The notes under the pieces are model-generated. The model had not been told where the DNA came from and did not search any database. It saw only the letters and a program-made list of their open reading frames with translations. Made by a program: the position numbers and the translations under genes. From the NCBI RefSeq assembly GCF_006345805.1, contig NC_043012.1, forward strand, positions 186,001-250,000: a DNA stretch of 64,000 nucleotides, read 5' to 3'. The stretch is from Octopus sinensis (Eukaryota). Shown piece by piece: positions 487 to 716 of the stretch. Position 1 is the first letter of the stretch, and each line of letters starts with the position of its first letter.

Positions 487-716
487 ATATGCTTTATTTT
501 AAGCAGCAGAAAATTCAACAAAATCTGTTACTCTGAGTTTCTCGTTGCCGTTCATCAAACAGTTTTCGCAAAAACTGTCTGATGAACGGCAACGAGAAAC
601 TCAGAGTAACAGATTTTGTTGAATTTTCTGCTGCTTAAAATAAAGCATATTACTCTACCACTGGTATTTGAGTACTCTTTTTTCCACCTTGTTTCACATT
701 TATTTGTTTACTACGG
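487..716 (+). mobile_element. Foldback mini-element (hairpin plus tail) carrying hammerhead motifs; probable Penelope-like pseudo-LTR derivative
   Basis: 487-566 is the near-perfect reverse complement of 571-650, followed by a ~65 bp unpaired T-rich tail, with (TA)n on both sides. A second copy lies in the opposite orientation at 53990-54215. Confidence 0.75.
575..612 (+). ncRNA. Minimal type I hammerhead ribozyme motif
   Basis: ctgt-CTGATGA-a-cg-gcaa-cg-a-GAAA-ctcagag-TA-acag. Helix I is ctgt/acag, the conserved boxes CUGAUGA and GAAA are present, helix II is short and GNRA-capped, helix III is quasi-palindromic (actcagagt), and the GUA cleavage triplet ends at 608. Confidence 0.7.

Follow-up and report, generated by a model that had tools for sequence, protein, structure and literature searches.

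The window analysed here is a stretch of 64,000 nucleotides from Octopus sinensis (contig NC_043012.1, positions 186,001 to 250,000 of the forward strand). Near its left end lies a 230-base hairpin unit with (TA)n on each side (Table 1). An earlier note on this DNA had described it as a palindrome with an unpaired tail, and this description holds, with arms at 487–566 and 571–650 and the tail at 646–716. The arms are 80 nt long, 99% complementary and separated by a 4-nt spacer; the hairpin has a minimum free energy of −135.1 kcal/mol (z −23.9), and 0 of 200 shuffled sequences are equally stable. Family positions are counted from site B, so that window position 716 is 0, site A is −71, C3 of the hammerhead is −137 and the predicted cut is −108/−107.

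Table 1. Features of the Penelope-like element (PLE) unit and of a second copy, in window coordinates (pLTR, pseudo-LTR)
Feature	Position	Strand	Remark
Left (TA)n target	477..490	.	
Inverted 5′-truncated arm	491..566	-	pLTR end; spans -145 to site A, with 1 extra base here
Private G558A (= C3U)	within inverted arm 491..566	-	
Centre/junction between arms	567..570	.	6 nt short of family 5′ edge at -154
Direct 5′-truncated arm	568..716	+	-148 to site B
Minimal type I hammerhead, predicted cut 608/609	575..612	+	Candidate ribozyme, from sequence
Site A, end of tail-less arms	645	+	Putative first RT start site; 3,188 exact site-A+TATA matches
PLE tail, 71 nt	646..716	+	Outside the family's palindrome
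Site B	716	+	Putative second RT start site
Right (TA)n target	717..812	.	Target-site duplication unreadable inside the repeat
Second stub, G11.1 older subfamily, different centre	53990..54222	-	90% identical

The direct arm carries the minimal type I hammerhead that had been recognized before, with the CUGANGA, GAAA and NUH boxes and helix I all present. Helix I is formed by CUGU (575–578) and ACAG (609–612), and the core is CUGAUGA (579–585). Helix II has just 2 bp (C587–G594 and G588–C593) with a GCAA loop, inside an A586·A595 mismatch, and is followed by GAAA (596–599) and the palindromic helix III ACUCAGAGU (599–607), with cleavage predicted after A608. As the earlier note had supposed, helix III does not close within a single molecule (P ≤ 0.003) and is self-complementary (computed self-dimer −7.4 kcal/mol). 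Among the 96 matches (E ≤ 10) given by the Rfam check suggested there, no hammerhead family appeared, only generic miRNA hairpins below the gathering score, and the hammerhead call therefore rests on our own descriptor and on relatives.

Conservation of the boxes or covariation of the helices had been expected, and among relatives a sense hammerhead is found in 42 of 78 related metagenome loci (0 of 78 shuffles), with helix I and palindromic helix III sequences differing; no compensatory change was found inside the octopus family itself. Positions 10.1·11.1 are U·U in 22 of 40 relatives, and a mismatch there is the norm, likewise in File S2 of PMC8557442; since relatives are usually mismatched, A·A at this place was not accepted as proof of a dead ribozyme. 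Five positions within the 38 nt are polymorphic at ≥10%, namely U4, N7, the variable base of the GNRA, 11.1 and the helix III centre, and all remaining hammerhead positions vary by ≤6.2%. It is at these five positions that the lineage-level changes fall (P 1e-5 to 1e-3, with position classes defined after seeing the data). Judged from these comparisons, the motif is a conserved PLE hammerhead. Across the family, helix II has lost its closing A-U pair and U4 has been regained.

The mirror arm has C3U (G558A), as reported previously. C3 is C in 48/48 inverted and 58/59 direct arms, and C3U as a built-in off switch was rejected, the change being private to the window copy and absent as a family trait. 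It had also been proposed that a transcript of either strand, holding both ribozyme and antisense, could switch cleavage off by folding. The folding part stands: in the full hairpin of either strand the computed pairing probability of helices I and II is about 0, and neither hammerhead copy is predicted to fold. The hairpin, however, is made at insertion and is not the RNA of the element, so the antisense switch in this folding model is probably incidental.

Exact matches to the tail 38-mer number 3,484 in the genome of 2.72 Gb, against 0 for the reversed control. A first search for the parent in 10 flanks gave no PLE ORF of ≥150 aa (L033 was later shown to contain broken ORF sequence), and a pattern search for sequence beyond the tail at 30 loci gave microsatellite or other flanks only. 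Some copies extend upstream via a 3′ UTR of about 1 kb into the coding region. A search begun at the start of the ORF identified copies where pLTR and tail lead into a short 5′ UTR and the ATG, and in full-length copies it is the sequence of window positions 646–716 that runs on in this way. One copy, L143, has an open ORF of 711 aa flanked by two pLTRs; breaks or truncations affect all 10 further copies that were fetched. The element unit measures 3,352–3,432 bp. The window unit shares 98–99% identity with the terminal part of full-length coding copies, and its direct arm matches the 3′ end of L143 at 98%, which bears out the PLE origin, with inverted copy and tail, put forward in the earlier note.

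The single ORF is of the telomerase-like RT type: in L143 it contains YRDD, and its structural model (pLDDT 93.5) has TERT 3du5 as top Foldseek match (E 3.3e-10); Pfam (0 matches) and PDB sequence searches with the ORF gave nothing significant. Motifs of a candidate C-terminal GIY-YIG endonuclease without CCHH (VVY...YTG, R and E/N) are kept in 119 homologues, and homologue P0002 carries PF01541. RWK is present in every copy covering that stretch, and DKT in L136, L137, L139, L142 and L145, with EKT in L143. CxLC and CRH are present around the conserved E and N, and a CNCKNESSC-type (CxCx5C) linker is found in L102 and L140, its second C being changed to F in many copies. Two traits of the Hydra clade, a hammerhead in the pLTR and (TA)n insertion, are present. 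The size of under 3 kb, which PMC8557442 in its accessible text gives as 'generally' the case, is exceeded because of the long 3′ UTR.

By sequence identity, the window unit corresponds to pLTR and tail at the 3′ end of a PLE of the same genome that is autonomous and belongs to the Hydra clade. It would represent a new family of a known clade, assigned by motifs and the model and compared by eye with Hydra-1_Obim; the octopus element is not among the 27 Hydra families in File S1 of PMC8557442. Known Hydra-clade PLEs (e.g., Hydra-1_Obim and Hydra-2_Amil) have the same RWK, DKT, CxCx5C linker, CxxC/CxH, (TA)n target and pLTR hammerhead (Craig et al., 2021, PMC8557442). The hammerhead of Hydra-2_aMil has the same helix I and an ACTC-n-GAGT helix III, whereas Hydra-1_Obim differs, by eye, in N-terminal protein sequence and hammerhead. 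The octopus PLE also differs in its unit of about 3.4 kb, the 3′ UTR of about 1 kb, a helix II of 2–3 bp and the 71-nt tail. Contigs of four runs cover the element, with a depth that tracks copy number and without a visible start. Hydra-type elements are abundant in metagenome contigs (L264–L341), with 460 relatives among 606 candidates and 1,076 proteins at E ≤ 1e-10, against 27 families in PMC8557442.

Insertions were sampled as 70 loci taken by the tail 38-mer in genome order, plus 30 taken by a tail pattern excluding pure TA continuation. Exact ends at B occur in 62 of the 70 tail-selected loci. An adjacent inverted arm is present in 46 of them, always ending at or near A and never tailed; this 46/70 is a lower bound, as distant arms fall outside the 900-nt window, and L087/L088 are one tandem pair of palindromes. 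Thirty loci were chosen by the A end and an internal match (L210) was dropped. Among the 29 left, of which L187 and L207 were read by eye, the adjacent inverted arm is B-ended in 17 cases and A-ended in 0, with 7 solo copies and 5 running past the fetched window. Full-length copies with an inverted arm combine A and B in 4/4. Nearly all two-armed insertions combine an end at site A with an opposite end at site B, the exceptions being L030, tailed on both arms, and L035, which joins the tailed arm to a tail-type end of another family. Nine of 10 full-length copies with two pLTRs (L136–L146) end tail-less at site A.

The 64 palindromes have 52 junction types. Where a centre recurs, the −154 arm may terminate at A in one copy and at B in another. 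As the commonest centres are found in both polarities, they are remade at each insertion and not inherited. Palindromes range from a few dozen bases up to 3.9 kb (the self-inverted stretch of L102, at 99.3%). The tail-less arm is more than 10 nt longer than the tailed arm in 21/64 palindromes and the reverse is seen in 5/64; L187 and L207 have just 11–20 nt of the B end inverted against the A arm, and some insertions have the tail alone opposite a long A arm. Short copies dominate, with tailed arms reaching beyond −180 in 9/70 only, and all three alleles of 11.1 are also found on long arms. Subfamily-discordant arm pairs number 2/47 and 2/53, against 26.5 and 28.7 expected, and this agreement far above chance indicates that both arms derive from the same RNA or like RNAs. 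Arm-to-arm divergence gives three age classes (U11.1 6.7%, G11.1 3.6% and A11.1 1.7%).

Arms have a sharp 5′ edge near −154. Exact 25-mer counts fall from 2,348 (−147) to 1,168 (−159) over 12 nt and then to 993 (−236) over 77 nt, the last count taking in older subfamilies. In 164 sampled arms the stop rate per nt is 0.071 at −155..−147 and 0.004 farther upstream, and about half of the young-subfamily arms stop in the 12-nt window just upstream of the ribozyme. The other half pass the edge and several full-length 5′ pLTRs reach beyond it, and therefore other templates exist. At the cleavage site the stop rate shows no excess (0.009 vs 0.006 around), so the template appears to be uncleaved. Cleaved RNA as the main template was rejected, as 8/142 arms end at −110..−105.

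The −154 A lies within CCATTCT, 17 nt upstream of the hammerhead core, and this motif fits the initiator consensus YYANWYY. The pile-up of arms together with the initiator-like sequence leads us to read the edge as the RNA 5′ end, and the stubs, by this reading of the sequence, are probably run-off products from the 5′ pLTR. Under a tentative alternative that we hold unlikely, the origin would be the same, and the edge would mark a splice acceptor or a hairpin, the extended hammerhead helix I, in place of a transcription start. An extended helix I is predicted to begin at −153, so that the edge coincides with the helix base. TTCTAG looks like a 3′ splice site, and in D. virilis the intron of Penelope is described as ending at helix I (PMC4209133). 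The base at the edge also shows no cap-G excess in solo copies (G 6, C 6 and A 5 of 17), although G in 5/17 in one other sample was suggestive. Against the hairpin, the RT would reach its 3′ strand first, at about −93, where there is no peak; against splicing, the arms retain the pyrimidines and AG that would be taken out. Neither agrees well with the 196 arms that start exactly at −154 after a non-templated base, with the one full-length copy whose 5′ pLTR starts at −154 (L120/L146), or with the internal Inr/DPE promoter that PMC2377424 places in the Penelope pLTR.

With the edge read as the RNA 5′ end, we consider it likely, with good confidence, that a stub is a short pLTR-plus-tail insertion in (TA)n, formed when two cDNAs that had been primed separately were joined end to end. 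The integration steps are deduced from the identity to coding copies, the fixed outer ends A and B, the variable centres and the sharp 5′ edge. The RT/endonuclease of the element would nick both strands of (TA)n, and each nick would prime reverse transcription at a different place, one at site A and one at site B, with the same RNA or a sister molecule as template. Both cDNAs would run off near the RNA 5′ end, at the initiator-like site around −154, anneal by short microhomologies and be repaired into an inverted repeat with a one-ended tail. The hammerhead would be carried along uncleaved; any activity would be confined to the parent RNA and would need a dimer or the help of protein. A tail-less arm that is often the longer one fits two separately primed cDNAs and cannot be given by a simple fold-back.

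Similar features are reported from in vitro work on PAc Poseidon (Frangieh et al., 2024, PMC11167929), where the tail lies between two RT start sites, extension takes place on both strands, a dimer is predicted and the hammerhead and its cleavage are dispensable. Poseidon belongs to another clade and has its start sites inside the ORF, whereas those of the octopus PLE are upstream of the ATG. That work saw no strand difference in the RT start site and does not address inverted repeats, its sole use of 'inverted' being for a blocking dT. Whether a dimeric enzyme primes the strands at A and B and joins the two run-off cDNAs, so that thousands of stubs record PLE integration, is in our estimate an even question. 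If true, the inverted repeat, the one-sided tail and the pLTR-only excess would have one common explanation, and DNA alone would be enough to map the transcription start. In the literature searched, mostly without subscription papers, we found no published two-primer model for PLE insertion, nor a statement of the A+B rule or the run-off edge, which is weak evidence of absence.

Formation of the palindrome by self-priming, or snap-back, of a single strand is a rather improbable route here. For rotifer PLEs self-priming on an antisense template has been proposed (PMC3846280, accessible text), and in the octopus family the arms carry common subfamily variants and many centres fall on small palindromes, e.g., CTAG, as this route would allow. 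Snap-back of a B-primed cDNA, however, requires the tailed arm to be the longer one, contrary to the 21 palindromes mentioned above, and A-primed snap-back cannot supply the tail. The arms of L086 are moreover non-overlapping, and in L061 the arm of another family is joined directly to the tail of this one.

The earlier note had favoured a non-autonomous, retrozyme-like mini-family. That the stubs are a self-propagating mini-element (retrozyme-like or SINE-like), transcribed and copied as a unit by PLE protein, is now very improbable. The dominance of short copies is in its favour, and so are a −154..B unit that would contain the putative start site and both RT start sites, and one locus with three head-to-tail units and a fourth nearby. 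Against it, the unit is the end of a coding PLE, centres are rebuilt and the commonest ones occur in both A and B polarity, and the 11.1 alleles are shared with long arms. The marker variant of the array, in turn, is present in 17 places, 14 of them scattered across subfamilies and structures; it marks no spread lineage, and spread from the C5 array was rejected. A MITE of the TIR DNA-transposon type, although likewise short, hairpin-forming, non-coding and in TA, can be dismissed, in line with the earlier note, as the 71-nt tail lies outside the inverted repeat, 5′ ends and centres vary and the sequence belongs to the end of an element that codes for an RT.

With two primed cDNAs as the preferred origin, the stubs may be compared with other short hammerhead-bearing repeats. 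Non-LTR retrozymes (PMC7229834; bioRxiv 10.64898/2026.07.22.740005; accessible texts) are also short, have a type I hammerhead and share PLE pLTR ancestry. They form head-to-tail arrays giving circular RNAs, whereas the sampled octopus loci are dispersed, inverted or solo, except for one array of three units and the tandem pair L087/L088, and do not propagate as a non-coding unit of their own. The array, L342 (G000:C5:83780430–83781325), has three head-to-tail −154..site B units with (TA)n between them and a fourth unit 390 bp off with a shared variant; such a small retrozyme-like array could permit dimer cleavage. The −154..B unit could be a ready-made seed for retrozyme arrays.

In Schistosoma, close pairs of minimal hammerheads on opposite strands, with palindromic helix III, are ascribed to truncated PLEs (Cervera and De la Pena, 2014, PMC4209133, accessible text); in the octopus the parent element and the junctions are resolved. 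For PLEs in general, copies that are inverted and 5′-truncated, tails and a bias towards (TA)n have been described (PMC8557442). Insertions with an inverted truncated copy and a tail (PMC8557442 fig. 2; PMC3846280; PMC2377424) have the same anatomy at all sizes and a microsatellite target. The A+B end rule and the arm-end pile-up of the octopus stubs were not found stated in the accessible text of these papers. The element itself is ordinary, but it offers a large natural data set on PLE inverted repeats with a one-sided tail, the origin of which is listed as unresolved in PMC8557442. From the A+B rule together with the arm asymmetry comes a concrete two-cDNA model, testable by the existing in vitro PLE assay, for which a near-intact natural ORF exists. 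Such stubs are easily misfiled as MITEs, miRNA hairpins or retrozymes.

Chimeric insertions were seen at L061 (1354–1528) and L035 (4977–5330), where the arm of another family is joined without TA to the tail or arm of this PLE family. Two more repeat families in the window (33396–33678 and 17549–17770) have a palindrome and one-sided tail beside TA, with further copies in fetched loci, and are probably other PLE families. A different dispersed repeat (1475–1594, 2405–2522 and 26186) has a hammerhead-like core (CUGAGGA or CUGAAGA ... GAAA), and a candidate type I hammerhead that has no relation to this PLE family, its helix II long and its helix III palindromic, lies at 39928–39985.
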